This document shows positions 10,564-64,000 of a DNA stretch of 64,000 nt, one piece after another (the first letter of the stretch is position 1; each line of letters starts with the position of its first letter). The stretch comes from Candidatus Omnitrophota bacterium (lineage in GTDB: Bacteria > Omnitrophota > Gorgyraeia > Zapsychrales > Zapsychraceae). The notes under the pieces were generated by a model, which was given only the letters and a program-made list of their open reading frames with translations, had not been told where the DNA came from and made no database searches. Both the position numbers and the translations under genes were made by a program. The stretch covers positions 2,442 through 66,441 of the forward strand of contig JAGQKV010000003.1 of assembly GCA_020429915.1 (NCBI GenBank), in the 5' to 3' direction.

Positions 10564-10596
10564 GACAGAACTCCTTTCCGCGATTGGGGAATTTTT

Positions 10597-10624: not shown

Positions 10625-10706
10625 TCCTTGATATAAAAAATCAGGCAGAATCGGAATTATCGGAAGCGCGCGGCGGCTCCGTTTTCCGTCGACAAAGGAC
10701 ATCCGT

Positions 10707-18750: not shown

Positions 18751-18787
18751 AGACCCAGCCGCAAGTACCGAATTTAAAAAGATCTAT

Positions 18788-18859: not shown

Positions 18860-18919
18860 TACTTTTGTAGCGACGACCAGACGCAGCAGTTGAACTGACA
18901 GGATTTCTTTGAGACGAAC

Positions 18920-21828: not shown

Positions 21829-21876
21829 CGTGCCTTGCTCTTCTTTCGCAAGAAAGAATCGGCCAGCCAGGCCAAC

Positions 21877-22783: not shown

Positions 22784-22856
22784 GCCCTCCCCTCGGTTCC
22801 GAGGACAGGCAATCCCGTAATATTAACAGCTTTACCTGATCAGTAAGGAGATATAC

Positions 22857-23303: not shown

Positions 23304-23317
23304 TACGGAGAGTATCA

Positions 23318-23566
23318 ATGACGGCATACCGAAAAAGAAGAAAGTTCAGCGGCCGCGGAAAGATTTCGGCCAAGTACCAGTTGCCCAAAGAGGCGGTGAT
23401 CGATTACAAAAACCTGTCGCTCATCCAGAAGTACGTGAATGAGCGCGGTAAATTGATCCCGCGCCGGATCACCGGCGTAACGGCGAAGGAACAGCGTAAT
23501 ATCGCCGTAGCAGTCAAACGGGCACGGTTTATGGCGTTGCTGACGACGGGCGCGGCCCGGCGGTAA
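23318..23566 (+). CDS. rpsR: 30S ribosomal protein S18
   Basis: [48 protein letters not shown]. Confidence 0.9.
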
Positions 23567-23618
23567 GCGCTGCTGAAGCGACATTAACAAACAACCATAT
23601 ATAGCATAGGACAGCATT

Positions 23619-24062
23619 ATGAAAGTCATACTGCGGCAGGATGTGAGAAATCTGGGACGGGTGGGCGACGTCGTAAAGGTCAAGGACGGCTATGCCCGTA
23701 ATATGTTGCTCCCCAAGGATATGGCTTATCTCGCCACACCGGCGAACCTAAAGCGCATTGAGAAGCAGAAAAAATTGCATGCCGAACAATACGCCAAAAA
23801 GAAGGAAGAGTCTCTGGAACTGGCCGAAAAGATGGCCAAGGCTTCCTACACGGTCAGTGTGGAGGCCAACGAGCAGGAAAAGCTGTACGGTTCCATTCAC
23901 GAAGGCGATGTGGTGAAGGCCCTGGAAGCCGAAGGTTTCACTGTTGACAAGAAGGATATCGCCTTTGAACAACCGATCGAAGAGCTCGGAATTTTTGAAG
24001 TCGGTGTTACACTCCATCCGGAAGTGACGGCAAAGATAAGACTATGGGTAACCCGGAAGTAA
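23619..24062 (+). CDS. rplI: 50S ribosomal protein L9
   Basis: MKVILRQDVRNLGRVGDVVKVKDGYARNMLLP. Confidence 0.9.
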   Translation: MKVILRQDVRNLGRVGDVVKVKDGYARNMLLPKDMAYLATPANLKRIEKQKKLHAEQYAKKKEESLELAEKMAKASYTVSVEANEQEKLYGSIHEGDVVKALEAEGFTVDKKDIAFEQPIEELGIFEVGVTLHPEVTAKIRLWVTRK

Positions 24063-29430: not shown

Positions 29431-30765
29431 ATGTCGTCCCGTCATCAAAAAACGATTTCACAGGAAGCCACTCTCAGCGGAGTCGGTCTGCACACCGGCA
29501 ACGAAGTCACGATTACTCTTAAACCGGCACCGGTCAACAGCGGAATCCGTTTTCAGCGGATCGATCTTCCGCTTAAACCGGTCATCAAGGCTGATTGGGA
29601 AAACCTTTGTCCCGACGCCAAGATCCCGCGTTGCACGACCATCGGCCGCGGTGAAGGCGTTGTGCATACGATCGAGCATTTGATGAGCGCGCTGGCCGGC
29701 AGCGGGATCACCAATTTGCATGTGGACATCAACGGCAATGAGTTGCCCGGTTGCGACGGCAGCGCCCAGGGATTTCTCGATGCCTTGAAGTCGGCCGGGA
29801 TACAGACCCAGGACGCCGAGCAGGATACGTTCAATGTCACCAAGCCGGTGGGAGTCTCACAGAACGGATCGTCGATCTTTATTTCTCCGGCCGATGATCT
29901 GCGCATTTCTTACGTCCTGGATTACCGCCATCCGCTGCTGCATTCCCAATTCCGTGAATTCGTCATCGATGAAGAGACCTACGGCCAGCAGATCGCGCCC
30001 AGCCGCACCTTCTGTCTGCAGCGCGAGGCCGAGGAACTCATCAATCAGGGACTGGGCAAGGGCGCGAATTATCAGAATACCCTGGTGGTGGGAGAGAACG
30101 GGGTCCTGGAAAACAACGTGCGTTTTGAAGACGAGTTCGTGAGACACAAGATTCTGGACATCATCGGTGATTTGTACCTGCTGGGAGCCCCCCTGAAGGG
30201 CCATATTTTCGCCGTTAAGAGCGGACACGAGCTTAACGCCCGCCTGGTCCGGAAAATGGCGGCCCAGCTGAAGGCCCAAAAAGCCCGGAGTGAACGGACC
30301 GGCCTCGATTTCAGCGGATTTCGCGAATTCGACATCCAGGCGATTCAGCAGGTCCTGCCGCACCGCTATCCGTTTCTGCTGGTTGACCGGGTGGTCGAGA
30401 TCGAGCACGGGAAACGGGCGCTCGGCATCAAGAATGTGACCATCAATGACGGCTTTTTTCAGGGCCATTTCCCGACCCGGCCGGTCATGCCGGGTGTTTT
30501 GATGGTGGAAGCCATGGCCCAGACCGGGGGCGTAGTTGTCTTGACGAATCCCGCTCATCGTGGTAAATTAGCATTTTTTATGGCCGCCAATAATGTCAAG
30601 TTCCGAAAAGTGGTAACGCCGGGAGATCAGCTGTTGATGGAAGTGGAAGTCCTGAAGGATAAGAGCCGTGTGGCCGAGATTCACGCCGTGTCCCGCGTCG
30701 ACGGGGAAATCGTCGCGGAGGCCGATATGACCTTCTTTTTTACCGACGCCACCTACCTGGAGTGA
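29431..30765 (+). CDS. lpxC-fabZ: Bifunctional UDP-3-O-acyl-N-acetylglucosamine deacetylase / 3-hydroxyacyl-ACP dehydratase (LpxC-FabZ fusion)
   Basis: N-terminal LpxC ([31 protein letters not shown]) and C-terminal FabZ hot-dog ([23 protein letters not shown]). 444 aa. Confidence 0.85.
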
Positions 30766-32526: not shown

Positions 32527-32635
32527 TCAACACCCCGCCAGACAGGCCGGCAAGGCGTGCCGACCGGCCCGGTGAGGGGGGTCGGGACCCGCGGAAAACG
32601 GCCCTAATCGCCGTGAAACCCCTCCCAAGCACCCG

Positions 32636-32664
32636 TTGACACTATATCCCTTTTTCTATATAAT
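32636..32664 (+). promoter_or_regulatory. Consensus sigma70 promoter TTGACA-17-TATAAT upstream of lysS, with about 55 nt AT-rich leader
   Basis: TTGACA at 32636-32641, a 17 nt spacer, TATAAT at 32659-32664, and ATG at 32721. Confidence 0.5.
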
Positions 32665-32720
32665 CGTATACTCATTATAAAAATTAGTAATATAATAAGT
32701 ACCAAACGAAAGCGTATTGT

Positions 32721-34208
32721 ATGAAACCGGATGAAATTAAAGAGGTTAGGCTGGCCAAGGCGGAAAATTTGCAGGCGGCCGGCATCGACCCCTATGGCGT
32801 AAAATTCACACCGTCCCATTGCGTGACGGATATCCTCACCGATTTTCAACCCGATCAGGAAGTGGCGGTAGCCGGCCGGATCATGGCCCAGCGCAGTATG
32901 GGCAAGGTAGTTTTCGCCGATCTGGAAGACCAGTCGGGCAAGGTCCAGTTGTTCATCAGACTGGCAGACCCCGACTCCCCGTTGACCAAGGCGGTCAAAT
33001 CCCTGGACATCGGCGATATCATCGGCGTGAAGGGAATTACCTTCACTACCAAGATGGGCCAGGACAGCATCAATGTCAGCGAAGTGACTTTTCTGACCAA
33101 GTCCCTGGCCACTTTGCCGGAAAAGTGGCACGGCTTGAAGGACGTCGAAGTCCGTTACCGCCAGAGGTATGTTGATCTCATCGCCAACAAGAACGTGCGT
33201 GATGTGTTTACCAAGCGCAGCCGGATCGTGTCGTATATCCGCCGACTGCTGGACGAGCGCGGATTCCTCGAGGTCGAGACGCCCATGTTGCAGCCGCTGG
33301 CCGGCGGCGCGCGCGGCCGTCCGTTCAGGAGCAAGCACAACGCGTATGACCTGGACGTTTTCTTGCGCATCGCACCGGAGTTGTACCTCAAACGGCTGCT
33401 GGTCGGCGGGTTCGAGCGCGTGTATGAAATCAACCGCAACTTCCGCAACGAGGGGGTTTCCACGCGGCACAATCCCGAGTTCACCATGCTGGAGGTGTAC
33501 CAGGCCTACGGTGATTTCGGAGACATGATGAAGCTTACCGAAGATCTCGTGGCCGGCGCGGCCAAGGAGATCACCGGATCGTATAAAGTGATGTACCAGG
33601 GCCGGGAGATCAACTTTGAACCGCCCTGGGAACGGCGCAGCTTTGCGCAGATCATGAAGGACAAGTTCGACATCAATCCCGAAGATGAAGCCGCGGTGAT
33701 GCTCGACAAGGTCAAGGCGCACAAGGGCGGATCGGTCAAGATCGATAAACTGACCCGGTCGGCCGTCATGAAGATCGCCGAAGACCTGCTGGAAGAAGAC
33801 GAGATCACCGATCCGGTCTTCTTTACCGATTACTTCACGTTCCTCTGCCCGCTGGCCAAGACCATTCCGGAAAATCCGGCCATCTCGGCCCGCTTTGAGG
33901 CGTTTATCGCGGGTATGGAGGTCGGCAACGCGTATTCGGAGTTGAACGACCCCAGCGAACAGCGCCGCCGGTTGCTGGAAGATCTCGAGGACGACGTCGA
34001 GACCGGCAACCGCTCCGTGGACGAAGACTTTCTGACCGCTCTGGAGTACGGCATGCCGCCGGCCGGCGGTCTGGGTATCGGGATCGACCGCTTGGTCATG
34101 CTGTTGACCGACTCGCCGTCGATCCGCGATGTGATCCTGTTCCCGCTGATGAAGCCGCTTCCGGTCAGAGGCGAAGAGCCGACGGCCGCAACTGTCGAAC
34201 AGGAATAG
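32721..34208 (+). CDS. lysS: Lysyl-tRNA synthetase (class II)
   Basis: N-terminal OB anticodon-binding domain and class II motifs (FLEVETPML, RNEG, GLGIGIDRLVMLL). Confidence 0.9.
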   Translation: MKPDEIKEVRLAKAENLQAAGIDPYGVKFTPSHCVTDILTDFQPDQEVAVAGRIMAQRSMGKVVFADLEDQSGKVQLFIRLADPDSPLTKAVKSLDIGDIIGVKGITFTTKMGQDSINVSEVTFLTKSLATLPEKWHGLKDVEVRYRQRYVDLIANKNVRDVFTKRSRIVSYIRRLLDERGFLEVETPMLQPLAGGARGRPFRSKHNAYDLDVFLRIAPELYLKRLLVGGFERVYEINRNFRNEGVSTRHNPEFTMLEVYQAYGDFGDMMKLTEDLVAGAAKEITGSYKVMYQGREINFEPPWERRSFAQIMKDKFDINPEDEAAVMLDKVKAHKGGSVKIDKLTRSAVMKIAEDLLEEDEITDPVFFTDYFTFLCPLAKTIPENPAISARFEAFIAGMEVGNAYSELNDPSEQRRRLLEDLEDDVETGNRSVDEDFLTALEYGMPPAGGLGIGIDRLVMLLTDSPSIRDVILFPLMKPLPVRGEEPTAATVEQE

Positions 34209-34242
34209 CCCCGCACGGGATTCGCCCATCGAAGGAGGGCGC

Positions 34243-35436
34243 ATGCACTACGAAAACTGGATCAGTTACCGTTACCTGAAGGCCAAACAGGGAGGATTTC
34301 TCCGCTTCCTGCATTTCATTTCCGTGGCCGGTGTGGCCACCGGCGTCATGGCCCTGATCGTGGTGATCTCGGTCATGACCGGTTTCGGCAATACCCTTCG
34401 CGAACGAATCATCGGGACCTCTCCGCACATTACTGTCGAGAAAGAGACCGGCCTCACGGACTATCAGGATCTGCGCGAGCAATTGTTGCGCATCCCTGAG
34501 GTCAAGAGCGCCACGGCGTATCTGCAGGGAAATATCTATCTGGAGAGTCACGGTCAAAGCATGGCGTTGATCCTGCGCGGCGACCAGGTGCAGAGCCAGG
34601 CACAGACGACACGCATGGCCGAGTTCCTCAAGAAGGGCAACGTTGACGAACTCAAGAACGGCCGGATCTTTATCGGCACCGAACTGGCGCGCTTCTTCGG
34701 TTTCGATATCGGCGATCTGGTCACGCTGATCTCCCCGGGGACCGGGATCTCCGGCGAAGGCTGGCGGCATAGCGTCGAGATTGCCGGCATCTTCGAGACA
34801 GGGATGAGCGACCTCGATCAGAGTCTGATCGTCAGCAACATTGCCACCGCGCAGAAGCTGTTTAATATCAAGGACGACCGCGTCCACGGCATCGGGGTGC
34901 AGTTGCAGGACCCGTACAAAGCCGACGAGATCAAAAAAAAGGTTTACGCGCGCTTCGGCTTTAAGTACGCCGTCAAGACATGGACCGACACCAACCGCGG
35001 GCTGTTTCAGGCCTTGAAGCTGGAAAAGCTCGGTCTGTTTCTGGTCCTGACGCTGATGGTCCTGGTGGCGTCGTTCAATATCATCAGCACCCTGATCGTG
35101 ACGGTCACCAGCAAGGTCCATGACATCGGGGTGCTGCAGTCGATCGGCGTGTCCAAGGCGTCGATCCGTCGGATCTTCACGCGGCAGGGGATTTACATCG
35201 GGCTGCGCGGGATCATGTGGGGCGTCGTGTTGGGGCTGAGCATCTGCTACATCCTCAAGACCTATGTGGAAGTCCCGCAGAGTGTGTACGGCGTGGACCG
35301 GGTGCCGGTGGAGGTCGAACTCTTCGACATGCTGTGGATCATCGGCTGCGCGTTTGTCATCAGTTACTTGGCGTCGATTTACCCGTCCTCCAAGGCCGCC
35401 AGCCTGGAGCCGGTCGACGCCCTGCGTTACGAATAA
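34243..35436 (+). CDS. lolE: Lipoprotein-releasing system permease LolC/LolE (FtsX-like)
   Basis: 4-TM FtsX fold with a large periplasmic loop, immediately upstream of the LolD ATPase. Confidence 0.8.
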   Translation: MHYENWISYRYLKAKQGGFLRFLHFISVAGVATGVMALIVVISVMTGFGNTLRERIIGTSPHITVEKETGLTDYQDLREQLLRIPEVKSATAYLQGNIYLESHGQSMALILRGDQVQSQAQTTRMAEFLKKGNVDELKNGRIFIGTELARFFGFDIGDLVTLISPGTGISGEGWRHSVEIAGIFETGMSDLDQSLIVSNIATAQKLFNIKDDRVHGIGVQLQDPYKADEIKKKVYARFGFKYAVKTWTDTNRGLFQALKLEKLGLFLVLTLMVLVASFNIISTLIVTVTSKVHDIGVLQSIGVSKASIRRIFTRQGIYIGLRGIMWGVVLGLSICYILKTYVEVPQSVYGVDRVPVEVELFDMLWIIGCAFVISYLASIYPSSKAASLEPVDALRYE

Positions 35437-53332: not shown

Positions 53333-54531
53333 ACCGACGTAACTATAAAAATCCCATGCCGCAGCACGCGACCTGGTGCGAGATCGATCTGGCCGCCATC
53401 CGTCACAACCTGCGCCAGGTCAAGGAGCTGGCCTCGCGCAACGAATTCTTTCTTCCCGGCCGTAGCGGATCGGGACAGAAGATCAAAACCAGCATGATGG
53501 GCGTGCTGTGTGTGATCAAGGCCGACGCCTACGGCCACGGCATGCTCGAGGTGTGCGGGGTCCTTGACGACGAGGGGGTGGAGATGTTCGGCGTGTCCGA
53601 CATCAATGAAGGCATTGCTCTGCGCGACCGCGGCATCACGACACCGGTGCTGCTGTTTGAAAGCACGCTTCCCGAACACATTCCGTTTATCTGCGAATAC
53701 GATTTGACGCCGACATTGTGCACGCTGGAATTTGCCCGCCGTTTGGACGAGCTGGCGCACAAACTGAACAAGACCGTGCGCGTCCATATCGAGGTCGACA
53801 CCGGCATGGGCCGGCTCGGCGAGTGGCATACCGGCGCGCTGGATTTTATCCGCCAGGTCGCGTCTTTGCGCAATCTGGTGATCGAGGGGATTTTCACCCA
53901 TTTCCCGTCCGCCGACACCGACAAGAAATTCACCCGCCAGCAGATCGACCTGATCCACGGCATCATCCTCGAACTCGACCGGGAAGGGCTGATCATCCCG
54001 TATGTCCACGCCTGCAACAGCATGGGCCTGATGGGCTATCACACCAGCGTGATGAATCTGTTCCGGCCGGGGTTAATGGTGTACGGCCAGTACCCGGCCA
54101 AACGTGTGCGCGATGTCATCGCGCTGAAGCCGGTGCTCACGGTCAAAAGCAAGGTCATCTATGTCAAAGAGATTGCCAAGGGTCGCAGCATCTCCTACGG
54201 CCGGACATTCGTCGCCAAGCGCCGGATGACCGTGGCCACCATCCCGATCGGCTACAATGACGGATACCTGCGCGAGTACTCCAACAAGGCGCACGTACTC
54301 ATTAACGGTCGCCGCTGCCGGGTGCTGGGCATGGTCACTATGGACCAGATCGTCGTCGATGTGACCGGTATCGGCGGTGTGAGCGAAGGGACGATCGCCA
54401 CCGTGCTGGGCCGCGACGGCGACGATGAAATCACGGCCGACGAACTTGCCCGGCACGCCAAGACGATCAACTACGAAATCCTGTGCCACCTCGGCAACTG
54501 CATCCCGCGGGTGTACTTGGAGGCATCCTAA
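53329..54531 (+). CDS. alr: Alanine racemase
   Basis: PLP-lysine motif VIKADAYGHG, and C-terminal beta domain with the YGR..V..M pattern. Confidence 0.9.
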   Translation: MNRRNYKNPMPQHATWCEIDLAAIRHNLRQVKELASRNEFFLPGRSGSGQKIKTSMMGVLCVIKADAYGHGMLEVCGVLDDEGVEMFGVSDINEGIALRDRGITTPVLLFESTLPEHIPFICEYDLTPTLCTLEFARRLDELAHKLNKTVRVHIEVDTGMGRLGEWHTGALDFIRQVASLRNLVIEGIFTHFPSADTDKKFTRQQIDLIHGIILELDREGLIIPYVHACNSMGLMGYHTSVMNLFRPGLMVYGQYPAKRVRDVIALKPVLTVKSKVIYVKEIAKGRSISYGRTFVAKRRMTVATIPIGYNDGYLREYSNKAHVLINGRRCRVLGMVTMDQIVVDVTGIGGVSEGTIATVLGRDGDDEITADELARHAKTINYEILCHLGNCIPRVYLEAS

Positions 54532-55466
54532 TGCGAATCCAATTCCGCCACGTTTTGTTGCTTACCCTCATTGTAAACTTTTTATGTTCAACTGTTGCCG
54601 CAGCGGTTGAACGAGTGGCTGGAACACATGTAAGCTTGAATCCGCCGCCGAACTTTGAAAAAGCGGATAAGTTTCCCGGTTTCATGCGTGAAGAGTACGG
54701 CGCGTCGATTATGGTGATGGAGCTCCCGGGTCCGTTCGATGAATATAGAGCCGGCATTGAAGACAAGGATCACTTGAGTACGCGAGGGATGCGTCTTTTG
54801 CAGAAAGAGGCTGTCCGGGTGGATAACCGAGACGGCTTACTGGTGCATCTTTCTCAGGTGCTTCATTCGTTGGAATTCCGAAAATGGGTATTGCTCATCG
54901 GTGAGCGAGATCGAAACGTTATGGTCATGGCAAATTATCCTGCAGAACTTGAAGAAGAATTTTCGATGATTTTGCGTGAGAGTGTGCTCAGTACACTTTG
55001 GGATCCGGACCAACAAGTGAGCAAGGAAGAGGGATTAAATTTCACCTTAACCGAATCCGGATCGATGCGTCTTGCGGAGCGGATGGGGAATATGCTGATG
55101 TACTCAAAGGATGCACAGGTTCAGCCTAGATCGGTGGATGATCCCATTTTGATCGCTGGTTCTGCCTTGACAGATTGGCCTATTGGTGACAGAAAAGAGT
55201 TTTCCCGAAAGCGTCTGCAATTGACCGCTACCGTCACGGCGATTGAGATCGAGACTTTGGATGAGGTACGTGTGGACGGTTTAGAGGCGGTCGAAATTCT
55301 GGCGAAAGCGAAGGATACTGATTCCGGGAAAGAAATTCGTCTTTACCAAATGATGGTTTTTAAGGGGCAGACCTACTACCTGATTCAGGGTATGGTGAGC
55401 TTACGCCGGGAGGACGAATTTATGGCGGACTTTCAGGCAATGGCGCGATCGTTTAAGTGCAAATAA
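54531..55466 (+). CDS. Secreted hypothetical protein in a lower-GC segment
   Basis: Signal peptide MRIQFRHVLLLTLIVNFLCSTVAAA and no recognisable motifs. Local GC is about 45% versus about 62% genome-like background. Confidence 0.55.
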   Translation: MRIQFRHVLLLTLIVNFLCSTVAAAVERVAGTHVSLNPPPNFEKADKFPGFMREEYGASIMVMELPGPFDEYRAGIEDKDHLSTRGMRLLQKEAVRVDNRDGLLVHLSQVLHSLEFRKWVLLIGERDRNVMVMANYPAELEEEFSMILRESVLSTLWDPDQQVSKEEGLNFTLTESGSMRLAERMGNMLMYSKDAQVQPRSVDDPILIAGSALTDWPIGDRKEFSRKRLQLTATVTAIEIETLDEVRVDGLEAVEILAKAKDTDSGKEIRLYQMMVFKGQTYYLIQGMVSLRREDEFMADFQAMARSFKCK

Positions 55467-55571
55467 ACTTGCATGTGTACCATGGGGTCCTTATGTGTCC
55501 GAGAATGACTACCTAAGTTGCCCAGGACATCCATATTGCAAAAATAAGTACCCCCACTAGCCCGATGAGTA

Positions 55572-55600
55572 TTGACAATCACTTACGATTGATTTACATT
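55572..55600 (+). promoter_or_regulatory. Candidate sigma70 promoter TTGACA-17-TACATT in the non-coding region upstream of the giant gene
   Basis: TTGACA at 55572-55577, a 17 nt spacer, TACATT at 55595-55600. Confidence 0.4.
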
Positions 55601-55606
55601 TAGCAT

Positions 55607-55688
55607 ATAGTCACGGCAACGATGTCGTGACTTACCTGAACGGACATTGAAGCCCGGATTGCCGAACCAACGGCGGCCCGGGTTTTTT
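55607..55688 (+). ncRNA. Candidate small RNA (about 80 nt) between the promoter and an intrinsic terminator
   Basis: Predicted transcript carries the hairpin GTCACG-N10-CGTGAC (55610-55631) and ends at a terminator. No family assigned. Confidence 0.3.
55653..55688 (+). terminator. Rho-independent terminator (CCCGG-att-GCCG-aaccaa-CGGC-gg-CCGGG + T6)
   Basis: A two-part GC stem followed by TTTTTT at 55683-55688. Confidence 0.55.
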
Positions 55689-55959
55689 CATTGAGGACAT
55701 CATTTACGGAGCGCAGCGACGTAAATGGACGTCCGAAATGAACCCGACGTAGCTCAAACGCGGAGGCACACGCAGTATGCCGGAGCATTTGAGCGTAGGC
55801 GGGTCATATCATTCATCTGGTATCACGGCTTCAGCCGTGATGCTCCCGAAGATTCGGTGGTGAATCCGCGGATCGAAGGGAGCGATACGTTCTTTTGGCT
55901 GTCCCCGGCCACTTTCCCCGTTAAGATTAACCGTCCAAGACCGTTACCTTGGATATATG

Positions 55960-55998
55960 ACCCAACTTCCCCAATTGGGAGGTTGGGCTTTTGTATTT
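55960..55998 (+). terminator. Terminator/attenuator-like hairpin directly upstream of the giant gene RBS
   Basis: CCCAAC-ttc-CCCAATTGGG-ag-GTTGGG, followed by the U-rich CTTTTGTATTT. The AGGAG SD lies at 56001-56005. Confidence 0.4.
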
Positions 55999-56014
55999 AC
56001 AGGAGTATGAAATC

Positions 56015-59000
56015 ATGACGTCATCGCCAACGCACCCGAAATTCCGCTTTAGCCTGCCGTTTCGGCTGATCGCCCAAGTGTTGATTGTGTGCCTCGTCGG
56101 TACGGGCATCCCCGCGCCGCGGGAGGCGCACGGCCGCACGGCGCCGGAGATCCCGCGTCTGGGCGAACTGGTCCCGGCCAGCCCGGACTATGCCCCGCCG
56201 ACCTTGGCCGGACTGAAGATCTATCCGGACAATCCGTTCCGTTTCGATTTTCTCATCGATCCGGGGGATTCCCGTTTGACACAGGAGGCGCAGCGCGATG
56301 AATTCACCCGTCTTATCAAATACTTTCTGGCGGCGCTGACCATCCCCGAGGGCGATCTGTGGGTGAATCTCTCGCCGTTCGAGAAAGACCGCATCATGAC
56401 CGACGCCTTTGGCCGTACCCAGATGGGGCGCGATATGTTGGTTCAGGATTACATGCTCAAGCAGATGTCCGCCTCGGTGATCTATCCGGAGAGCGAGGTC
56501 GGGGAAAACTACTGGCGCGAGGTGTTCGCGCGCTTCAATCAGGAATTCGGTTCCTCCGAGGTGCCCGTGGAGATGGTCAACAAGGTTTGGGTCGTACCGC
56601 GGGATGCCGAGCTGTACGTTGAGGACGGCCGCGTGCTGATCACCGAAAGCCGCCTGGAGGTGATGCTCGGCGAGGATTATCAGGCGCGCCTGCGCGAAGA
56701 CGCCGTCACGGGTGAGTCTGTGGAGGCGGAGGTCTCCGGGGAGACCGCGGCCCGTCAGGAATTGTGGCGCCAGCTCTTCCGCGAACACATACTGCCCGAA
56801 GTCGCGCGGGACGTCAACCACGGCCGGAATTTTAACGAACTGCGCCAGATCTACCACGCGGTCATTCTGGCGACGTGGTATCGCCGGCATCTGCGCCAAT
56901 CGCTTTTCGGGCAGATGTATGTCGGCCGCGAAAAGACCGACGGTGTGGACATCGCGGACCGGACGGCCAAAGAGAAGATCTATGAGCAGTACCTGAAAGC
57001 GATCAAGCGCGGGGTCTACGATTACATCAAAGAAGATTTCGATCCCGTCACGCAGGGCATCATCGCACGCCGGTATTTCTCCGGCGGCATCATGTTTTCC
57101 AATCTCGACCGGCGCGAGGGCGTGTACCGCGAGACCCGCGATCCCGGCGTGTTGAGCAAATTGAAGATCACCGCGCGGCAGCATCTCGAGCGCTTGTACT
57201 ATCTGGTATCGTCGGTGGTGATCTCCAAGGAGGGCGTGGCCAGCTACCAGAAGTTGGAGCTGGCCGCCCGTCCGCGGACCGCCGCGCGGATACGTTCCGC
57301 GATTCCGGTCGAACGTCTCAGCCGGCTCTTCCGGCGGACATTCGCCGCGGCACGCTCCAAGGTGCGCGGGGTCGGCCTGCTGGCCGGTGCGGCGTTCCTC
57401 GCGACCACGCTCGGCATGGGCCAGCCTGTTCAGGCGGCCGAGTATACCTATGACGACCAGGGACGTTTCGTGGTCGTGGTGGAGCAGGGCGATGACTTCG
57501 GCGAGATCGTGGAAGATTTGCGCGTCGCGCACAAGCGCTATGACAACGCGCGGTACACGCCGCCGTTGCGCGGACAATTTTGGGGCCCGGACGGCGCGGT
57601 CTATGCTATGGCGCGGTTGATGGAACGCGACAATTTAGGCCTGCATCCGGGCGACGTGCTGGTCATCCCCGGGGATGTGATCTCCGAGGCCACGCAGACC
57701 GCTTTGGCCGGGCCGGTACCGTATACACCGCCGATGCTCACCGGACCGCTGGTCGTCGAAGAGCCGGAGCTCGACCTGACGCCGCTGGAACCGGTCAAGC
57801 CCGCCCCGCAACTGCAGGAGTTCACGCCGCCGGACTTCGTCGATACCCCGGCGATCGTCACCGACACCGATACCGACGAAGGCGCTGCCGACCGCATTGT
57901 CGAGGCCGGTAAAGGCGAACGTCTGGACGCGGGCGACAATCGTGAGGAAACACAGATCACCGCGGTCCCTGAGACGTCCCCGGGACTGTTCAACCGCTGG
58001 ACCCTGCTCGGCGTCCTGGGATTGATCGGCGCCGGCGTGATCGGTGTCCTCTTGTACCGCAGCCGCGGCGGACGCGTGTTGTCCGCAGAGGAGGAACAGG
58101 ACGAGCCCGCGGACCTGCCGCAGGAAGACCCCGGACGGCTGGCGCAGCGCCGGATTATTCAGGAGGCCCTGCGCATCCGGTTGCAAAAGTTGAGCCTGAA
58201 CTATTCCGGGCATACCGCCAAACTGCGTCAGGCGGCGGTTGACGTGACACGGCCGCTGGCCGATTATCTCGCGGACCGCTTGAACTCCGTGCTGCCCGAC
58301 GGGCGCGGGGACATCACCGGACTGGTGCAGGAATACGTGACCGCGCCGCTGCGTGACGGAATTGCCGGCGCGATCGACACGGCAGGCGACTTTGAGTCCA
58401 TCGAACGAAATCTCGACGCGTGGACCGACGGACTGGCCGGGACCATTCTGGAGCAAGATCTGCCGGTGGCAGAGGTCGAGCGCCGTATCAACGCCTATAT
58501 ACAGGAAGAACTGGACCCGCTTTTCGCCGCTGCTGAGTCCGCGGCGGTGTCCCGGGTCTCCGCCGAATTGTTCAGCGCCGAATGGATGAACGTTTATCAG
58601 GCGCGCATCGAGAGTCTGCTGCGCCGTCGCCTGGCGGATCAAGACGGGCTCAACGACCTGCCCGGTTTCCTCAGCGAAACCGCGACTGCGTTGACGCAGC
58701 TGTTCCGTGAAGAAGGATTGATCACCGGCGCCGACAGTCTCACTTTAAGTGCAGGGTTGTCGGCCGCGCAGGTGGCGGCCGTCATCCGCCGCCACAGTCC
58801 GGAATACCGCGGCATGTTGAACCGGGCCTATGCGCACAGCGAGGCGATCCGCGAAGACATCATTACCGCGCTCTTGGACGGGAATATCCTTCCCGAGGGT
58901 ATCAGCAAGGAAGAGGCACGGGCCTACTTGCGTGACGCCGCCGGGGCTGAACTCGACCGTATTGTGGAAAGTGAATTCGACCGCCGGGCCGGGTACCTGC

Positions 59001-62000
59001 AGGTGGAGGCGCGCGTCGATGCCTTTGCCGCGGCCGTGGCCGAAACCTTGGCCGGGGAGGAGCCGGACCTGTCCGCGCAGCAGCGGCTGTTGCGCGGCTT
59101 TATCGATTTTGAACTGCGCGATACCGTGACTGCCGCGGTGGCGGCGGCTGAGGAGGCATTGCGCGCGCAGTTGTTCGGCGCCGACATGCCGCTCGTGTAC
59201 CGGGCCGCCATGGAGAAGGCGGTGCGCACCGAAGTGGCCGTGGCCAACGGGGCGCCCGTCAATCCGGCGTTGATGTTCGCGCAGGCCGTGGAAAATGTAC
59301 TCACCGCGCTGAAGGACGACATGAAACTGATCGGCCAGGCGATCATCCCGCCGCCCGAAGAATTGCTCGCGGCGGTCGGTGCCCTGTTCCCTGAACCCGT
59401 GACCGCCGGCGTCCCGGATGACCGGCGCCTGCGCGCGCCGCCGTTCGAAATCACCCGCGCCGACATCGCGGCCGCCGCGGCCGCTGTTACCATTTATCTC
59501 GGCGGAGACGGTTCCGCCGCCGAAGGTCTGTTGCTGGCCGCCAGTCCGCTGTTATTCCGCGCCGGCGTGACCGCGTCGTACTGGCTGCATGAACTCACGC
59601 ACGTCGCCGCGGCCGGCCCCTCCGCCGTAACGTCCGCGAACCTGCGCGCCAATGTCCCGTTCGGCGACTGGCTGCGGATGCTCGTCCCGGTCTTCGGGAC
59701 GGTGCCCGGCGACCTGCACGTTAAGGCGCCCAATACATGGTGGAATCATCTTTCGGCTGTGGGCACCAGCCTGGCGCTGACACTCGGTTTGGCCATGACC
59801 GGTTTGTCGGCGGCAGGCGCCCACGCCATCGAACAATTGCAGCTCATTACACCGCTCTTGCTCGGTTCGGCGTTCGTGCTGGCCGGTGCGATACAGACGG
59901 ACGTGATCGATCCGCTGCTCAAGCGTATCAAGCAAGGCGCGAACTGCTGCGGCGTGGCGATCCTGCTCGGCAAACGCAAAGAGAAGGACGAACCGGTCAT
60001 CGCCCGGCGTCTGCTCGGCGTGTACAAGCGGATGGGAGAGATTACCAACATCCGCGGACAGCAGGCGGCCGGCGCGGTCATCTCGGCCCGCAACGCCAAG
60101 GGCATGAGCACATTCGTCGGCGACCGCCGCGTCAACCCCAAGCACGGCGATCTTCCCGAAGGGCTGGAGGGACAAATCCGTCGGCATGTCCGTGCCGCGC
60201 GGGTGAAGGGTTTCGGGGATACCGGGACCACCATGATGTTCGGTCACTACCGGTACGGGACTACCTCGGCCCCGGCCAAGAAGGAAACCCATCCGCACCG
60301 TTTCGTCGAACCGCGCGACGTTCGCTACTGGGAAGTCAGCGATGGACGACTGGAGGCACAGACGCGCGAACTCGAGATTTACATCGTGCACAACGGGGAC
60401 TTTAATTACTGGACCATGTACGGGACCAAGCACGGTAATTCGCACATCGGCTTTTGGCTCGAACACGTGCTGGGTGTGGTCGACGAGACCCAGGGTGACT
60501 CGCCCAAGATCTCCGGGATGATGAACTTGCTGCGCACGCAGGGCATCTTCGGAGCGTCGGCGCGACTGGCGTATTACACGCAGATCGCCACCCGCATCGA
60601 AGACGTGTTCGGCGGACAGCATCCCGCCGACATCCTGCCGGATTTTTCCAAGAGCCTGGTCCAGCCGTCGGAAGATTACATTTTCAAGAAGACCATGGAG
60701 GCGAAACGCAACGCGCCCAATACCGCGCTCACTCAGGACGAGATCGCGGAGTTGGGTAAAGTGTTCGACGACCTGTTCACAGAGTCGGGTGAATCGTTGC
60801 TGACCTCCGGAGCGGCCCGGCTTGCCGACATGTGGGTCAGCCGCGAACAGGCCGCCCGCGGCGACGAAGTCCTCACCGCGCAGCGGGCCCGCATCGACGC
60901 CTTCGCGGCGCGCGCGGCCGAACGGCTGGCCGGAGTGCCGCTGACCGCGGCGTGGAGCATCGAACAGCGCGACCGTTTTATCGAGGCGACGCTCGAGGCG
61001 TTCTTCATGAACGATGAATTCACCGCCGTGCGCAGATTTTTGGAAGGCGCGCAGGGGTCGTTCGGCATGGGCCTGGCGACCTCGCTCAATCCCGGCGGGG
61101 TGGTGGTGGCCGCCGACGGACAGCCGCTGGCCGTGGGGATGGACACCGCCCGCGAGAATATCCTGATCGCGTCGGAATTCTCTGCGCTCAAAGTACCCGT
61201 CGATGAAGACGGCACCCGCCTCGATTACCGCTTCGCTCTGAAACAAGAGCCCGGCAAGGGCGAGATCGTGGCCATCGCACCGGACGGGCGGCTGCAGGTC
61301 TATTCGCGCGAACGCCGCTCCATGATCAACGAGGGAGAAATCACCCGCCGGCTGGTCCCGCTCAAGAATAATCCTTACATCACGGAACTGGCTGTGCTGG
61401 ACCAGGAGGATCCCGTCGGCAAAGATATCGCCGAGACGGCCGCGGTCCTGGGGCATATCCGCGACGAATGGACCGATCCGGATTCGATGAATCGCCAGAG
61501 CCTCGCGGGCCTGCAGGAACAGATCATCCGCAAACACATCCTGCGCCGCATCAAAAAGACGTCGGCCGCTTACGCCGGCATTCACAATGCGCTCAGCCGC
61601 AAGGCGCGCGCCGCAGTGCGCGACAGATTAAACGGTTATCTGCGCGCCGAACTCGGCGAACGCATCCCTCTCGACGAAGAACTCTGGAAGAAGCTCGGCA
61701 TGGACCGTTTCACCGGTGAGGTGCAGCACCTGGTAGAGATTGCTCTGGACCAGGCCTTTGCCTGGCACGAGATCAATGAACACATCGGGGCCAAGGCCGC
61801 TGTTTTCGCGCGCCGCCACTCCGTCGGCGTACTCAGCCTGGACCAGCTTCAGGACGAGATCCATCTCTATGTCGACCACCTGCTCAAGGACACGATCGAA
61901 GCGGAACTGCAGCGTGCGCAAAGTATGGTCGATGAGATCATCGCCCATTGGCAGCCGGTGATCGCCGCGGAGATCGTCTTTGAATGGACACGCGCCAAGG

Positions 62001-64000
62001 CCCAGCAGCGCACCGGGGACCTTTCCCCGATCGGCCGTCAGGCGATCGCTCAGTGGAAGGGGATTTGGCGGAAACTCAACATCCGCCTGACCATGCCGCC
62101 GGAGACGCCGAAGACCGATGTGCTGGTGACCGGACTGGAAACGAGCCTGTGGATGGGCGAACAGTTCGCGCAGGACCTGCAACGGATGTTTCCGGAGATG
62201 GTCGTGCGCAGTGAGTCGGCCAACAAGCTGCTCGAGGATCCGCTGTCTACCGGACTCGATGAGGATACCATTGTGATCGCGGTCAGCCAGTCGGGACAGA
62301 CCTTTCCGTCGCTCAACGCGACCATCCTGCTTGACAAGATCACCCGCCACAAAGTCTTTGTGGTCACCGGTGAATACGACACGCTGATGGGGCAGGCCGT
62401 CGGCCAGGATTTCCAGCCCGACGCGCGTTTCAGCGGCCGCATCTTTTCCAACTTTACCGGCTTCCGCCACGCGGAGGCCTCCTCGGTGACGGCCACGGCC
62501 ACGCATGCCACCTTCACCGAAATGTTGATTTATCTTGCTGAGGGACTCCACGACCGGTTTCCCTACGATTCCCCATACGGACTCGCGATTGAAGAAGGCG
62601 ACGTGGCCGACGTGAAGGCCGCCCGTGACCGCGCGCTGGAAGAGACCGCGCGCATCACCGGCAAGGACGCCGACGGAAAGACGCTGGAAAGTCCGGAACG
62701 CAGCCAGATCCTCCAACAGGCGCGCAACTGGGCGCGCAACGTCCTGGACGCGCCGCTGGCGGTGATCCTCTCGAAGATCAACCTGTACGTGACGGTGGTC
62801 AGCGGGTTCTTCGTCTTTCTGTCGATCGCCAAGAGCCTGCCGCTGGTCGGCGGGCTGGCCGGGACGGTCTTTATCGCCAGCTTCCTGCAGGCGATGTACT
62901 ACGATTACTTCTCGGCAGGCATGAATTACCTGTTGCGCAAGATCACCGGCCGCGAGATGCTCGACCGCATCGGCAAGCGCACCGTAGTCATCGGCGACAA
63001 GGCCTATGTCCATCAGTCGCTGGAGGCGTTTTTATCGAAACTCAACTCGCTCAGCCGCGGTATCGTGGGTGTCGAGGTGCACGGCGCCAATCCGGGTGAT
63101 CACATGATCTCGCGTTTCGGGCACCGCGTGGTGCGCGGGACCATGATCTGGATCGGCGTCCCTGACGGACGCATGCCGGGACTGCGCCAGAAACAGGCGA
63201 GTGTCGAGATGACCGCCAAACAGGGCAAGGGCGTGCGCAACCGCATTTTTGGCCGCGGCATCGGTCCCAACGTGGTGACCGTCGGACGCCGGCGCGTGCA
63301 CAATCCCAACGTGGCCGACAGCACCATCATTCTGAACGGGGAGGTGAAGACGGACAAGCCGGCCCTGGAGACGTTTGTCGAGAACCGCTTCGATTCGATG
63401 ACCCGGCTGGTCGCCGGGCAGGTGTTCTTTCACGCGATGCAGCGGCGCGTGGCCACCGCCGGCCTGAGCAAACCGTGGCGCTGGCTGTGGTACTGGCGCT
63501 GGAATATTCACCGCACGCAGAGCGGACCGCGTATCGCCACTACGCAGAGTCCGGTCGATGCCGAGATCCTGGAACAACTCGAGGACCGTCCCATTTATCC
63601 CGCGGCGGGCGTGCGCGAGGTCATCCGCCGGCCCGACGGCGGACATCGTTACGACAGAGATACGAACCCGGTCGACGGGGGAGACGCGGCCCTGTTGGCA
63701 GAGCCGGCAACCGTGACCGGGGGCGACGAAGTCGGGGGTATCGACTTGCGCGGCGGGACCGTCGAACTCAATATCACCGAAGGTCTCCCGACGGTACCGG
63801 CCGACACCCTCCCGGCCGGATTTACCATCGATCCTCTGATTATCGAAACGCTCCCGGTCAACGGTTTCACGCCGCTGATCATCGACGTCAGGCCTATCAA
63901 CGCGATTTACTTCCTCGGAGAAGGGGACAGTGATCGCGATCAGCCCCGGCCCCGGTCCCGCTTAGGCGGACCGGTGGCCGGATACATGGCGGAGGAAGCC
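56015..64000 (+). CDS. Giant multi-domain, membrane-associated protein. At least 2,662 aa are in the window and the 3' end runs off the window. It contains a GlmS-like glutamine amidotransferase class II + SIS module and is not present in the supplied ORF track.
   Basis: Manual triplet-by-triplet reading from ATG 56015 (SD AGGAG 9 nt upstream; in-frame TGA upstream at 55838-55840). No TAA/TAG/TGA occurs in 2,662 consecutive codons to nt 64000, whereas about 65 stops would be expected by chance at this GC. GC-rich third positions are consistent with the other genes. N-terminal signal/TM (FRLIAQVLIVCLVGTGIPAP) and a TM at about 57990-58060 (WTLLGVLGLIGAGVIGVLLY). Ntn-GATase motifs CCGVAILLG, GFGDTGTTMMFGHYRYGT...HPH and IYIVHNGDFNY. 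SIS motif VIAVSQSGQT. Confidence 0.8.
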   Translation, partial: MTSSPTHPKFRFSLPFRLIAQVLIVCLVGTGIPAPREAHGRTAPEIPRLGELVPASPDYAPPTLAGLKIYPDNPFRFDFLIDPGDSRLTQEAQRDEFTRLIKYFLAALTIPEGDLWVNLSPFEKDRIMTDAFGRTQMGRDMLVQDYMLKQMSASVIYPESEVGENYWREVFARFNQEFGSSEVPVEMVNKVWVVPRDAELYVEDGRVLITESRLEVMLGEDYQARLREDAVTGESVEAEVSGETAARQELWRQLFREHILPEVARDVNHGRNFNELRQIYHAVILATWYRRHLRQSLFGQMYVGREKTDGVDIADRTAKEKIYEQYLKAIKRGVYDYIKEDFDPVTQGIIARRYFSGGIMFSNLDRREGVYRETRDPGVLSKLKITARQHLERLYYLVSSVVISKEGVASYQKLELAARPRTAARIRSAIPVERLSRLFRRTFAAARSKVRGVGLLAGAAFLATTLGMGQPVQAAEYTYDDQGRFVVVVEQGDDFGEIVEDLRVAHKRYDNARYTPPLRGQFWGPDGAVYAMARLMERDNLGLHPGDVLVIPGDVISEATQTALAGPVPYTPPMLTGPLVVEEPELDLTPLEPVKPAPQLQEFTPPDFVDTPAIVTDTDTDEGAADRIVEAGKGERLDAGDNREETQITAVPETSPGLFNRWTLLGVLGLIGAGVIGVLLYRSRGGRVLSAEEEQDEPADLPQEDPGRLAQRRIIQEALRIRLQKLSLNYSGHTAKLRQAAVDVTRPLADYLADRLNSVLPDGRGDITGLVQEYVTAPLRDGIAGAIDTAGDFESIERNLDAWTDGLAGTILEQDLPVAEVERRINAYIQEELDPLFAAAESAAVSRVSAELFSAEWMNVYQARIESLLRRRLADQDGLNDLPGFLSETATALTQLFREEGLITGADSLTLSAGLSAAQVAAVIRRHSPEYRGMLNRAYAHSEAIREDIITALLDGNILPEGISKEEARAYLRDAAGAELDRIVESEFDRRAGYLQVEARVDAFAAAVAETLAGEEPDLSAQQRLLRGFIDFELRDTVTAAVAAAEEALRAQLFGADMPLVYRAAMEKAVRTEVAVANGAPVNPALMFAQAVENVLTALKDDMKLIGQAIIPPPEELLAAVGALFPEPVTAGVPDDRRLRAPPFEITRADIAAAAAAVTIYLGGDGSAAEGLLLAASPLLFRAGVTASYWLHELTHVAAAGPSAVTSANLRANVPFGDWLRMLVPVFGTVPGDLHVKAPNTWWNHLSAVGTSLALTLGLAMTGLSAAGAHAIEQLQLITPLLLGSAFVLAGAIQTDVIDPLLKRIKQGANCCGVAILLGKRKEKDEPVIARRLLGVYKRMGEITNIRGQQAAGAVISARNAKGMSTFVGDRRVNPKHGDLPEGLEGQIRRHVRAARVKGFGDTGTTMMFGHYRYGTTSAPAKKETHPHRFVEPRDVRYWEVSDGRLEAQTRELEIYIVHNGDFNYWTMYGTKHGNSHIGFWLEHVLGVVDETQGDSPKISGMMNLLRTQGIFGASARLAYYTQIATRIEDVFGGQHPADILPDFSKSLVQPSEDYIFKKTMEAKRNAPNTALTQDEIAELGKVFDDLFTESGESLLTSGAARLADMWVSREQAARGDEVLTAQRARIDAFAARAAERLAGVPLTAAWSIEQRDRFIEATLEAFFMNDEFTAVRRFLEGAQGSFGMGLATSLNPGGVVVAADGQPLAVGMDTARENILIASEFSALKVPVDEDGTRLDYRFALKQEPGKGEIVAIAPDGRLQVYSRERRSMINEGEITRRLVPLKNNPYITELAVLDQEDPVGKDIAETAAVLGHIRDEWTDPDSMNRQSLAGLQEQIIRKHILRRIKKTSAAYAGIHNALSRKARAAVRDRLNGYLRAELGERIPLDEELWKKLGMDRFTGEVQHLVEIALDQAFAWHEINEHIGAKAAVFARRHSVGVLSLDQLQDEIHLYVDHLLKDTIEAELQRAQSMVDEIIAHWQPVIAAEIVFEWTRAKAQQRTGDLSPIGRQAIAQWKGIWRKLNIRLTMPPETPKTDVLVTGLETSLWMGEQFAQDLQRMFPEMVVRSESANKLLEDPLSTGLDEDTIVIAVSQSGQTFPSLNATILLDKITRHKVFVVTGEYDTLMGQAVGQDFQPDARFSGRIFSNFTGFRHAEASSVTATATHATFTEMLIYLAEGLHDRFPYDSPYGLAIEEGDVADVKAARDRALEETARITGKDADGKTLESPERSQILQQARNWARNVLDAPLAVILSKINLYVTVVSGFFVFLSIAKSLPLVGGLAGTVFIASFLQAMYYDYFSAGMNYLLRKITGREMLDRIGKRTVVIGDKAYVHQSLEAFLSKLNSLSRGIVGVEVHGANPGDHMISRFGHRVVRGTMIWIGVPDGRMPGLRQKQASVEMTAKQGKGVRNRIFGRGIGPNVVTVGRRRVHNPNVADSTIILNGEVKTDKPALETFVENRFDSMTRLVAGQVFFHAMQRRVATAGLSKPWRWLWYWRWNIHRTQSGPRIATTQSPVDAEILEQLEDRPIYPAAGVREVIRRPDGGHRYDRDTNPVDGGDAALLAEPATVTGGDEVGGIDLRGGTVELNITEGLPTVPADTLPAGFTIDPLIIETLPVNGFTPLIIDVRPINAIYFLGEGDSDRDQPRPRSRLGGPVAGYMAEEA

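Follow-up and report, generated by a model that had tools for sequence, protein, structure and literature searches.

What kind of protein is encoded by a reading frame that runs for almost 8 kb without a stop codon up to the edge of an analysed stretch of bacterial DNA, and what might such a protein do? The stretch, referred to here as the window, comprises 64,000 nucleotides (GenBank assembly GCA_020429915.1, contig JAGQKV010000003.1, positions 2,442 to 66,441 of the forward strand), and an earlier sequence-only reading, made by a model, took the frame at its 3′ end for a giant gene of the surface, adhesion or predation-related type and a candidate for a novel system. Judging from the proteins encoded, the source organism is an uncultured Omnitrophota bacterium; the methionyl-tRNA synthetase (MetRS) of the window shares 68-76% amino acid identity with MetRS proteins named Candidatus Omnitrophota or Omnitrophica, including Ca. 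Aceula. By sequence comparison, the frame encodes a member of a very large, uncharacterised protein family restricted almost entirely to the Omnitrophota, in which two conserved terminal modules (N-module and C-module) frame a variable enzyme cargo. The cargo in this protein resembles the glutamine-dependent enzymes GlmS and GFAT, and we hold the identity of the gene, its family membership and its GlmS-like fold with high confidence.

Re-translation of positions 55838 to 64000 bears out the stop-free frame, with 2,662 sense codons and no stops between ATG 56015 and nucleotide 64000. At the regional composition (GC 0.635; one stop expected per 36 codons), the chance of such a run is approximately 10^-32.5. 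GC at codon positions 1, 2 and 3 amounts to 0.67, 0.44 and 0.80, the third-position value (GC3) being 0.80 throughout, which is a clear coding signature, and the remaining two forward frames contain 80 and 48 stops. Only seven stops occur in the antisense frame holding the long open reading frames (ORFs) that the sequence-only reading had called shadows, a call which is correct, as few stops are normal on the strand opposite a GC3-rich gene. The AGGAG Shine-Dalgarno sequence (56001..56005, + strand) does lie at the correct spacing, 9 nucleotides 5′ of the start codon, and the sole alternative in-frame start is TTG 55991. The nearest upstream in-frame stop had been placed wrongly at TGA 55838-55840; TAA 55922 and TAA 55928 lie closer, and the nearest is TGA 55958-55960.

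The 3′ end of the gene is provided by a separately stored ENA metagenome contig (L001), the 2,669 amino acid (aa) product of which, P0001, differs from the window protein by a single substitution (R in the window protein, G in P0001). The full-length gene thus measures 8,010 nucleotides or 2,669 codons, of which the window holds codons 1-2662 (56015..64000, + strand), with the stop codon TAG located 21 nucleotides past the window end. The earlier minimum of 7,986 nucleotides was true, and it covers nearly the whole gene. Its entry is indeed absent from the ORF track, probably through a convention of the tool, as such lists omit ORFs that run off the end. It is also the only gene in the window larger than 2.5 kb, as had been observed, the next largest ORFs measuring 2,421 and 2,334 nucleotides. 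The large gene is a complete, functional and selected 8-kb gene, ordinary in its coding properties. It is already present in public data as an unannotated protein, as are 15 further proteins with the same architecture, likewise unannotated.

The enzymatic nature of the central part became apparent through structure. An AlphaFold2 (AF2) model of aa 1305-2240 (936 aa), based on a 16-sequence alignment, reached a predicted local distance difference test (pLDDT) score of 88.6 and a predicted TM-score (pTM) of 0.79. When this core model was compared with the PDB by means of Foldseek, ranks 1-31 were all occupied by E. coli GlmS or human GFAT-1 (E 4e-12 to 5e-10), and later ranks by the isolated GlmS glutaminase domain (1xff; TM-score 0.68), PurF and SIS proteins (TM-score ~0.6). 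Searches of PDB chains with phmmer and hmmsearch, using both the core and a full-length ortholog profile, retrieved no GlmS, and as such the likeness is visible only by profile-profile and fold comparison, at an amino acid identity to GlmS and GFAT of about 10-12%. The profile search of the product which the sequence-only reading had proposed returned only sub-threshold Pfam and NCBIfam matches to SIS (Pfam SIS E 0.0017) and GlmS, so that its GlmS-like nature is drawn from the fold and from hhalign. The GlmS equivalog models TIGR01135 (NCBIfam) and PRK00331 gave 24.1 and 28.3 bits, far short of their respective cut-offs, 418 and 381. A PHROG profile of GlmS length also matched the same stretch below threshold; as this was the sole PHROG match and no PADLOC match was obtained, an origin as a defence system or from a phage was rejected.

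In the hhalign comparison with E. coli GlmS, Cys1312 falls on GlmS Cys1 and the motifs RG..AG, GHxRxxT..HPH, HNG and (S/T)D(S/T) align (E 6e-5), while aa ~1670-1763 fall on GlmS 144-223 (E 1.7e-4) and the SQSGQT loop on GlmS 338-366. Sixteen proteins, namely the window protein and 15 others with 21-42% identity to its core, share the enzyme core and the architecture, and eleven residues (C1312, G1313, R1347, G1348, H1411, R1413, T1416, N1460, G1461, D1462 and D1495) are invariant in all of them. By analogy with class-II amidotransferases these are the nucleophile, oxyanion hole and glutamine-binding residues, and conserved core residues are presumed to be the equivalents of Cys1, Arg26, Arg73, Thr76, Asn98, Gly99 and Asp123 in E. 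coli GlmS numbering. The invariance of this set makes it likely that the glutaminase site is functional. Both the class-II amidotransferase fold, with its Cys nucleophile, oxyanion Asn-Gly and glutamine-binding Arg, Thr and Asp, and a first SIS subdomain with the S-x-S-G-x-T sugar-phosphate loop can thus be recognised.

The class-II, or N-terminal nucleophile (Ntn), glutamine amidotransferase domain extends over 59948..61351 (aa 1312-1779) and contains a helical insertion of ~200 aa (aa ~1475-1678). In the AF2 model a long helical linker or insertion (61412..62074, aa ~1800-2020) leads from it to the sugar-phosphate-binding SIS domain (62120..62659, aa ~2036-2215), which carries the invariant SQSGQT loop. 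A conserved hairpin of transmembrane (TM) helices, called from hydropathy (62762..62911, aa ~2250-2299), precedes a conserved domain of unassigned fold (62912..63544, aa ~2300-2510; VHGANPxDH...RFxHRVVRG...RTQSG), which occupies the position of the second SIS subdomain of GlmS. A second SIS subdomain at aa 2296-2504 was considered and is unsupported, as this segment, conserved among the orthologs, showed no similarity to GlmS 449-609 by hhalign, nor to any PDB chain in the profile search. On the model, therefore, the core is a class-II amidotransferase with at least one SIS domain; we call it GlmS-like and do not claim that it is GlmS itself. Of 176 complete Omnitrophota genomes, 174 are reported to have canonical glmS, and the window protein is hence most likely a paralogue additional to the housekeeping enzyme. 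When another large homology search was run with the core (aa 1301-2520) as query, it added a single new protein, P0121, which shows the core to be confined to a small group. Within this group P0002 is collinear with the window protein end to end (36% identity), and the seven close orthologs have invariant residues along their entire length.

The position of the nucleophile is what sets this core apart. Class-II amidotransferases use the free α-amino group of an N-terminal Cys, known exceptions as encoded being PurF and glutamate synthase, from which short propeptides are removed. In the window protein the Cys that would lie at the mature N-terminus of GlmS or GFAT is residue 1312 of 2669 as encoded (codon 59948..59950), and all 16 orthologs have it at an internal position, ranging from residue 184 to 1424. 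In 15/16 of these it follows a hydrophobic helix, usually ending in (T/S)D, at a distance of 8-40 aa (mostly 12-21), and in P0017 such a helix abuts the nucleophile directly. Cys1312 itself is situated 12 residues after a hydrophobic module (59462..59914) which contains H1192-E-x-x-H1196 (nucleotides 59588-59602), TM helices at aa 1246-1264 and 1275-1293, and D1296, and is weakly reminiscent of Peptidase M50. The sequence HELTH (aa 1192-1196) and D1296 are invariant in the seven close orthologs, and the pair Cys1312-Gly1313 is invariant throughout. In the core model, Cys1312 stands directly before the first β-strand and behind a disordered linker. Because this putative N-terminal nucleophile is internal, cleavage of the polypeptide between Cys1311 and Cys1312 would be required. 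Most simply, this predicted cut would separate an N-terminal, envelope-facing half from a C-terminal enzyme kept at the membrane by the TM hairpin.

The core is set in a frame which is shared with a far larger number of proteins. More than 1,000 whole-protein matches were obtained, most of them covering ~13% of the protein, corresponding to the N-module and a short C-terminal match; P0047, for example, shares 48% identity with the window protein over aa 17-367. The N-module of ~335 aa (56120..57130, aa ~36-372) is marked by the motifs PDNPxxFDF, LIKYFLA, DLWVNLSPxExDRI, MGRDLLxQDYxLKQ, LRQIY and YFSGG, and an exhaustive search with it yielded 7,897 representatives of clusters formed at 50% identity, 5,687 of them at E≤1e-30. 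In 150/150 listed matches, which come from proteins of 376-4,770 aa, the module begins no further than ~90 residues from the N-terminus. At least 570 N-module loci were confirmed in species-representative genomes, several of which hold multiple copies. With the exception of L042, the best 80 of these loci come from metagenome-assembled genomes (MAGs) labelled Omnitrophota or with the placeholder 'uncultured Planctomycetales'. L042 (DYOU01000064.1, a 6.3-kb contig) belongs to a MAG labelled Candidatus Elulimicrobium (Patescibacteria group in the NCBI taxonomy), and reflects either the mis-binning of a contig from the Omnitrophota or the rare presence of the N-module in another phylum.

Thirty-six columns of the N-module are invariant among 40 aligned members, and the module is 45-50% identical across proteins with unrelated cargo. 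At the opposite end, 34 of 39 full-length members carry the C-module motif GG[IV]D[LFM], followed by GFxPVIIxIxP...LG. The distance of this motif to the C-terminus is 22-111 residues, or 56-111 if a single member is set aside. The C-module of the window protein, ~65 aa in length (63731..63934, aa ~2573-2640; VGGIDL...PVNGFTPLIIDVRPINAIYFLG), has VGGIDL at aa 2573-2578 together with FTPLIIDVRP. The protein accordingly combines all the features by which the family is recognised, namely a signal-like N-terminus with the N-module, the C-module within ~110 aa of its end and an Omnitrophota host. No Pfam match was found for either module, and the N-module was also without an NCBIfam match or a PDB relative in sequence and structure searches. 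Its model (pTM 0.71) shows an α/β structure with long helices, and the structural matches to helical pore-forming toxins (NheA, Cry6Aa) and BPI-like lipid binders are weak and non-significant. The most conserved N-module motif, DLWVNLSPFEKDRI (56360-56395, aa ~116-127), falls in a low-confidence and apparently unstructured loop of the AF2 model (pLDDT ~46), a location which would suit a role in docking or processing better than one in the structural core.

Between the two modules, precomputed Pfam annotations place radical SAM, phosphoglucomutase, PGI, TIM, PGK, FBPase, UDPGP and EPSP/MurA-type domains, as well as starch synthase, methyltransferases, UbiB with M48, kinases, HATPase_c, receiver and HTH domains. 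Most paralogues possess the N-terminal hydrophobic segment only, with no further strong TM helix before the C-module, and are thus predicted to be exported despite their cytoplasmic-type cargo. Of the proposal that the locus represents a novel system, the idea of a singular find is lost, as 15 similar proteins and ~7,900 clusters exist; what survives is the pair of uncharacterised end modules framing many enzymes.

The remainder of the window protein is dominated by membrane segments, which were called from hydropathy in the protein itself and averaged over its orthologs. A hydrophobic, signal-peptide-like segment (56054..56113, aa 14-33) is preceded by K/R residues, and its family consensus ends in AxAQ. 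A second, internal signal-sequence-like segment (57374..57430, aa 454-472) follows an Arg-rich stretch and ends in VQA|AE. From aa 476 to aa 660 the chain is acidic, rich in Pro and LysM-like. The LysM-like segment with an insertion (57440..57682, aa ~476-556) is named after a sub-threshold match in the ortholog P0005 (E 0.0056; 17.0 bits against a cut-off of 20.9), the window sequence itself giving no match, and bona fide LysM domains occur in other family members (PF01476 in P0062; P0047 is named LysM by NCBI). A strong TM helix (57998..58054, aa 662-680), directly followed by RSRGGR, leads to a poorly conserved Ala/Arg/Glu-rich helical spacer (58112..59434, aa ~700-1140), after which the HExxH module and the enzyme core are reached. 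Hydropathy and the core model thus agree with the signal-like N-terminus, the long Ala/Arg/Glu-rich helical region and the enzyme domains described in the sequence-only reading, and its two internal TM clusters at nucleotides 59740-59900 and 62760-62900 correspond to aa 1246-1293 and aa 2250-2299.

Taken as a whole, the best explanation is that of a framed, multi-pass membrane protein with a GlmS/GFAT-type cargo which is activated by cleavage and carries out amination locally, and we give it an even chance of being correct. Its topology, its cleavage and the reaction it catalyses, as deduced from sequence, are each put forward more tentatively and are somewhat doubtful when taken singly. The N-module and the LysM-like segment would face the periplasm or cell wall, and TM 662-680 would return the chain to the cytoplasm, where the spacer and the enzyme core would reside. 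A cytoplasmic core is favoured by the charges around TM 662-680, TM 1275-1293 and the hairpin (K/R residues occur on the predicted cytoplasmic side of the latter two), by the cytoplasmic substrates and by the conserved active site. The cut at Cys1311|Cys1312 would proceed autocatalytically, in the way PurF and glutamate synthase lose their propeptides, or else might be made by the adjacent HExxH module, and it would free the α-amino group required by Ntn amidotransferases. The enzyme would be tied to the membrane by the preceding HExxH hydrophobic module and the later TM hairpin, and the membrane-held C-terminal fragment could then transfer glutamine-derived ammonia to a bound sugar phosphate, in a chemistry like that of glucosamine-6-phosphate (GlcN-6-P) synthase, and so provide a local supply of amino-sugar precursors for envelope or glycan synthesis.

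Several observations weigh against this explanation. The HExxH motif reads HExxxH in 3/16 orthologs and is absent or unalignable in another 3/16, and Pfam M50/M50B is matched weakly in two orthologs only, the best score being 18.4 bits against a cut-off of 27.2. As the motif is not universal, autoprocessing is the more general candidate, and a role for the HExxH module as a cis-protease cutting at Cys1312 is only a lead. The segments at aa 14-33 and aa 454-472 both look N-in/C-out, and hydropathy together with the positive-inside rules gave no unique topology for the protein. No counterpart of the GlmS region around the catalytic Glu488, His504 and Lys603 was detectable by hhalign, which makes a GlcN-6-P synthase reaction uncertain, and the GlmS sequence and residue numbering used throughout that comparison are presumed to be correct. 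No functional partner gene was seen in the neighbourhoods of the window gene and its orthologs. Finally, the predicted export of most paralogues argues that the family may act outside the cytoplasm.

This last observation underlies the chief rival explanation, which we regard as doubtful. It holds that the signal peptide and the terminal modules constitute a phylum-specific sorting or secretion frame, by which the protein, or the fragment released at Cys1312, would be displayed on the surface or delivered to a host or prey cell. There the GlmS-like enzyme would rewire sugar or amino-sugar metabolism, as would the phosphoglucomutase, PGI, radical-SAM, kinase and methyltransferase cargoes of its paralogues. 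An N-module that keeps 45-50% identity across unrelated cargo is what would be expected of a domain docking to common machinery, and the literature on Omnitrophota giant proteins places their sugar-metabolic domains, by prediction, outside the cell and associates the phylum with episymbiosis or predation. The structural matches of the N-module to NheA, Cry6Aa and BPI-like lipid binders point in the same direction, but lie far below significance. At least five conserved internal hydrophobic helices, however, suit an integral inner-membrane protein, glutamine and sugar-phosphate substrates are cytoplasmic, and no secretion, pilus or pilZ genes were seen flanking the large gene or its orthologs (the window contig ends downstream). 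An extended form of this proposal, which we consider unlikely, takes the modules for the ends of an Omnitrophota-specific system for the sorting, export or display of divergent copies of cytoplasmic-type enzymes, GlmS-like in the window protein and phosphoglucomutase, PGI, TIM, radical SAM, kinases and methyltransferases in others, which would thereby reach the envelope, the cell surface or a host cell, with giants of 10-150 thousand amino acids (kAA) as concatenations in the same frame and the GlmS-like cargo as a zymogen cut at its internal Ntn Cys.

Quite improbable, by comparison with the framed membrane enzyme activated by cleavage, is a sensor or regulator, the core of which would bind glutamine and/or a sugar phosphate and thereby control the HExxH module, by regulated intramembrane proteolysis, or the envelope functions of the N-module. 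The location of the HExxH hydrophobic module directly 5′ of the core would suit this arrangement, as would the strong divergence of the core, with no recognisable second SIS subdomain or catalytic tail, and SIS domains do also serve as ligand sensors in regulators such as RccR, which is among the fold matches. The full set of class-II catalytic and glutamine-binding residues is, however, invariant in 16 orthologs at 21-42% identity, which argues for retained catalysis, and not every member of the group has the HExxH motif.

Very improbable is a classical giant surface adhesin, a predation-type giant gene or an Archaeovorin proper, the class of function which the sequence-only reading had suggested. 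The gene is long, in a phylum known for giant membrane-anchored proteins, and its product carries a signal-like segment near the N-terminus as well as a LysM-like piece. Thresholds for giant genes in the Omnitrophota are, however, ORFs of >20 kb to ~30 kb (West-Roberts et al. 2023, bioRxiv 10.1101/2023.11.21.568195; Seymour 2023) or proteins of ≥10,000 aa, so that a gene of 8,010 nucleotides and 2,669 aa is not a giant gene in this sense. Neither is it an adhesin-type one, as no repeats, HEAT, dockerin, glycosyltransferase or adhesin domains were found and its core is an enzyme of the GlmS/GFAT amidotransferase type. Its neighbours, moreover, are housekeeping genes, and not the secretion-system (T2SS/T4P-like, upstream) and pilZ (downstream) loci that have been reported beside Omnitrophota giant genes. 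An assembly chimera, decaying fusion or pseudogene, which the metagenomic source and the odd burial of an enzyme in the middle of a membrane protein might suggest, has a practically negligible probability, as the 2,669-aa product recurs on the separately stored ENA contig, the domain order is the same in 15 further proteins from different samples and sources, and the frame has no stops in 2,662 codons, a GC3 of 0.80 throughout and invariant residues along its whole length.

The rest of the window has a housekeeping character, with genes for ClpB-like, BamA, ABC-F, SurA-like, class-II aminoacyl-tRNA synthetase, RadA, LpxC-FabZ fusion and GlmU-like proteins, as well as tmk, holB, metG, tsaE/B, alr and one tRNA-Gln. 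The GlmU-like gene (18920-20179, + strand), beside the tRNA-Gln (18787-18860), encodes a nucleotidyltransferase with hexapeptide repeats, so that the window also codes for a canonical enzyme of the UDP-N-acetylglucosamine pathway, at a distance of 36 kb from the large gene. The LpxC-FabZ type fusion is a 444-aa ORF (29431-30765, + strand) joining an LpxC domain to a FabA-like dehydratase domain. The class-II aminoacyl-tRNA synthetase (32721-34208, + strand; tRNA-synt_2 and OB fold) is opposed by an overlapping 546-aa minus-strand ORF (32604-34244) without a family match, which is a shadow ORF, an artefact of the same type as the antisense ORFs over the large gene. The window's lowest GC (~0.52) occurs over ~1.6 kb at 22461-24044, where ORFs do not exceed 148 aa.

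Upstream of the large gene are found tmk, holB, metG, tsaE/B and alr, followed by a 327-aa ORF (54483-55466, + strand), which lies directly 5′ of it and is called as a 311-aa product in L001; it has no Pfam match, and no family is on record for its L001 counterpart. Neighbours differ from locus to locus among the orthologs, with no conserved gene neighbourhood, and the large gene is therefore treated as stand-alone. Other large genes occur near orthologs. In L082 a protein of 2,038 aa (21204-23209) with a cytidine/dCMP-deaminase domain is encoded 6 kb 3′ of the ortholog (1,991 aa in L084, 21232-23206; the orthologs are P0007 and P0005), and in L085 a 1,046-aa radical-SAM protein (9598-10947) is encoded 150 nucleotides 3′ of P0002. 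They may likewise belong to the framed family.

The 548-nucleotide intergenic gap between the 327-aa ORF and the large gene (55467-56014) has a GC of ~0.52, against 0.63 in the large gene, and may be a long 5′ leader. A σ70-like TTGACA-17-TACATT sequence is present at 55572-55600, and the number of such promoters is not above the shuffled expectation. A terminator-like hairpin with an 11-bp stem (55961..55987, + strand), followed by CTTTTGTATT in a U-tract up to 55997, ends 27 nucleotides before the start codon. Strong GC-rich hairpins with a U-tract recur just 5′ of the start codon at six ortholog loci, if L082 and its near-identical counterpart L084 are taken as one, namely at 55961-55997 in the window and at ~7915-7960 in L082, ~7930-7975 in L083, ~1440-1473 in L085, ~1450-1470 in L086 and ~75-110 in L087. 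They end ~25-45 nucleotides from the start codon in five of these and ~100 nucleotides in one. As there is no room for a promoter between hairpin and start, transcription must read through the hairpin, and in L083 the upstream gene is divergent, so that the hairpin there is not the terminator of that gene. The element is a candidate leader attenuator or leaky terminator. It has no Rfam family match, and no known RNA element such as a glmS ribozyme was found in the 550-nucleotide leader. A leader terminator as a family-wide trait was rejected, as a crude scan of the 150 nucleotides 5′ of N-module gene starts in the 80 loci L002-L081, 76 of which were scored, gave only a weak enrichment (29/76, against 14/76 inside genes and 20/76 on the reverse complement).

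The Omnitrophota are ubiquitous, ultra-small and probably host-dependent bacteria, and their long proteins pose the puzzle of cytoplasmic-type enzymes inside polypeptides that bear signal peptides or TM helices. The large gene offers a tractable single-enzyme case of this puzzle, with a core that is confidently GlmS/GFAT-like, an Ntn Cys at residue 1312, the family frame and a link to the multi-enzyme long proteins, and the proposed cleavage at Cys1312 is clearly testable. Were it to occur, juxtamembrane cleavage at an internal Ntn Cys, possibly by the HExxH module, would constitute a mode of activation not described for amidotransferases. The two terminal modules define ~7,900 protein clusters without a Pfam, NCBIfam or PDB counterpart, and finding where they send or hold their cargo bears on the workings of giant proteins and would annotate thousands of 'hypothetical' proteins.

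Among known systems, two-partner secretion exoproteins (TpsA) and polymorphic-toxin exoproteins provide a functional analogy only, in that they too have a signal peptide, a conserved N-terminal domain of ~300 aa and a variable remainder. There is no similarity to TpsA in sequence or fold, the N-module being α/β and not a β-helix, no TpsB-like partner is located nearby, and the variable part of the window family is central and followed by a conserved C-module. The HExxH module shares with the site-2 protease/Peptidase M50 family the motif within a hydrophobic segment, further TM helices after it and a conserved Asp (D1296), but no match in the window family reaches the gathering threshold, 6/16 orthologs have the motif in altered form or not at all, and no PDZ or CBS domains were found. 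The amidotransferases with propeptides, B. subtilis PurF and the large subunit of glutamate synthase, likewise have residues preceding the Cys, the removal of which activates the enzyme, and PurF is among the fold matches. Known Ntn amidotransferase propeptides are roughly 11-40 residues in length, whereas that of the window protein would be a membrane protein of 1,311 residues, and its cleavage is a prediction.

The closest relatives of the core are GlmS and GFAT, which provide the best fold matches and have the same order of a class-II Ntn glutamine amidotransferase followed by SIS, with the SQSG(E/Q)T phosphate loop conserved in the window family. In GlmS and GFAT the nucleophile is residue 1 or 2, and not 1312 of 2669. 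The window core differs furthermore in its helical insertions of ~200 aa, one inside the amidotransferase and one between the domains, in the TM hairpin after the first SIS subdomain, in having no recognisable second SIS subdomain or C-terminal Lys tail, and in being embedded in a membrane protein with N- and C-modules.

As regards the protein as a whole, the nearest parallel is found among the long multi-enzyme proteins and Archaeovorins of the Omnitrophota, which also bear signal peptides or TM helices together with cytoplasmic-type sugar-metabolism and other enzyme domains. In a catalogue of proteins of ≥10 kAA, 94% have TM helices or a signal peptide, and a 'multi-enzyme metabolic' class has been defined among them (Nielsen & Lui 2026, bioRxiv 10.64898/2026.06.07.730766). 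Neither the N-/C-module frame nor the GlmS-like cargo is described in the giant-protein papers, nor was either encountered in a full-text literature search for the motifs. With 2.7 kAA and one enzyme, the window protein is far smaller than these proteins of 10-147 kAA with dozens of enzymes, and it differs from the Archaeovorins in being without HEAT, glycosyltransferase or TPR Pfam matches and without upstream secretion-system or pilZ loci. The Pfam spectrum of the cargo in the N-module family nevertheless mirrors the modules of the multi-enzyme metabolic class, and we read the window protein as a small, one-enzyme relative of the Omnitrophota multi-enzyme long proteins.

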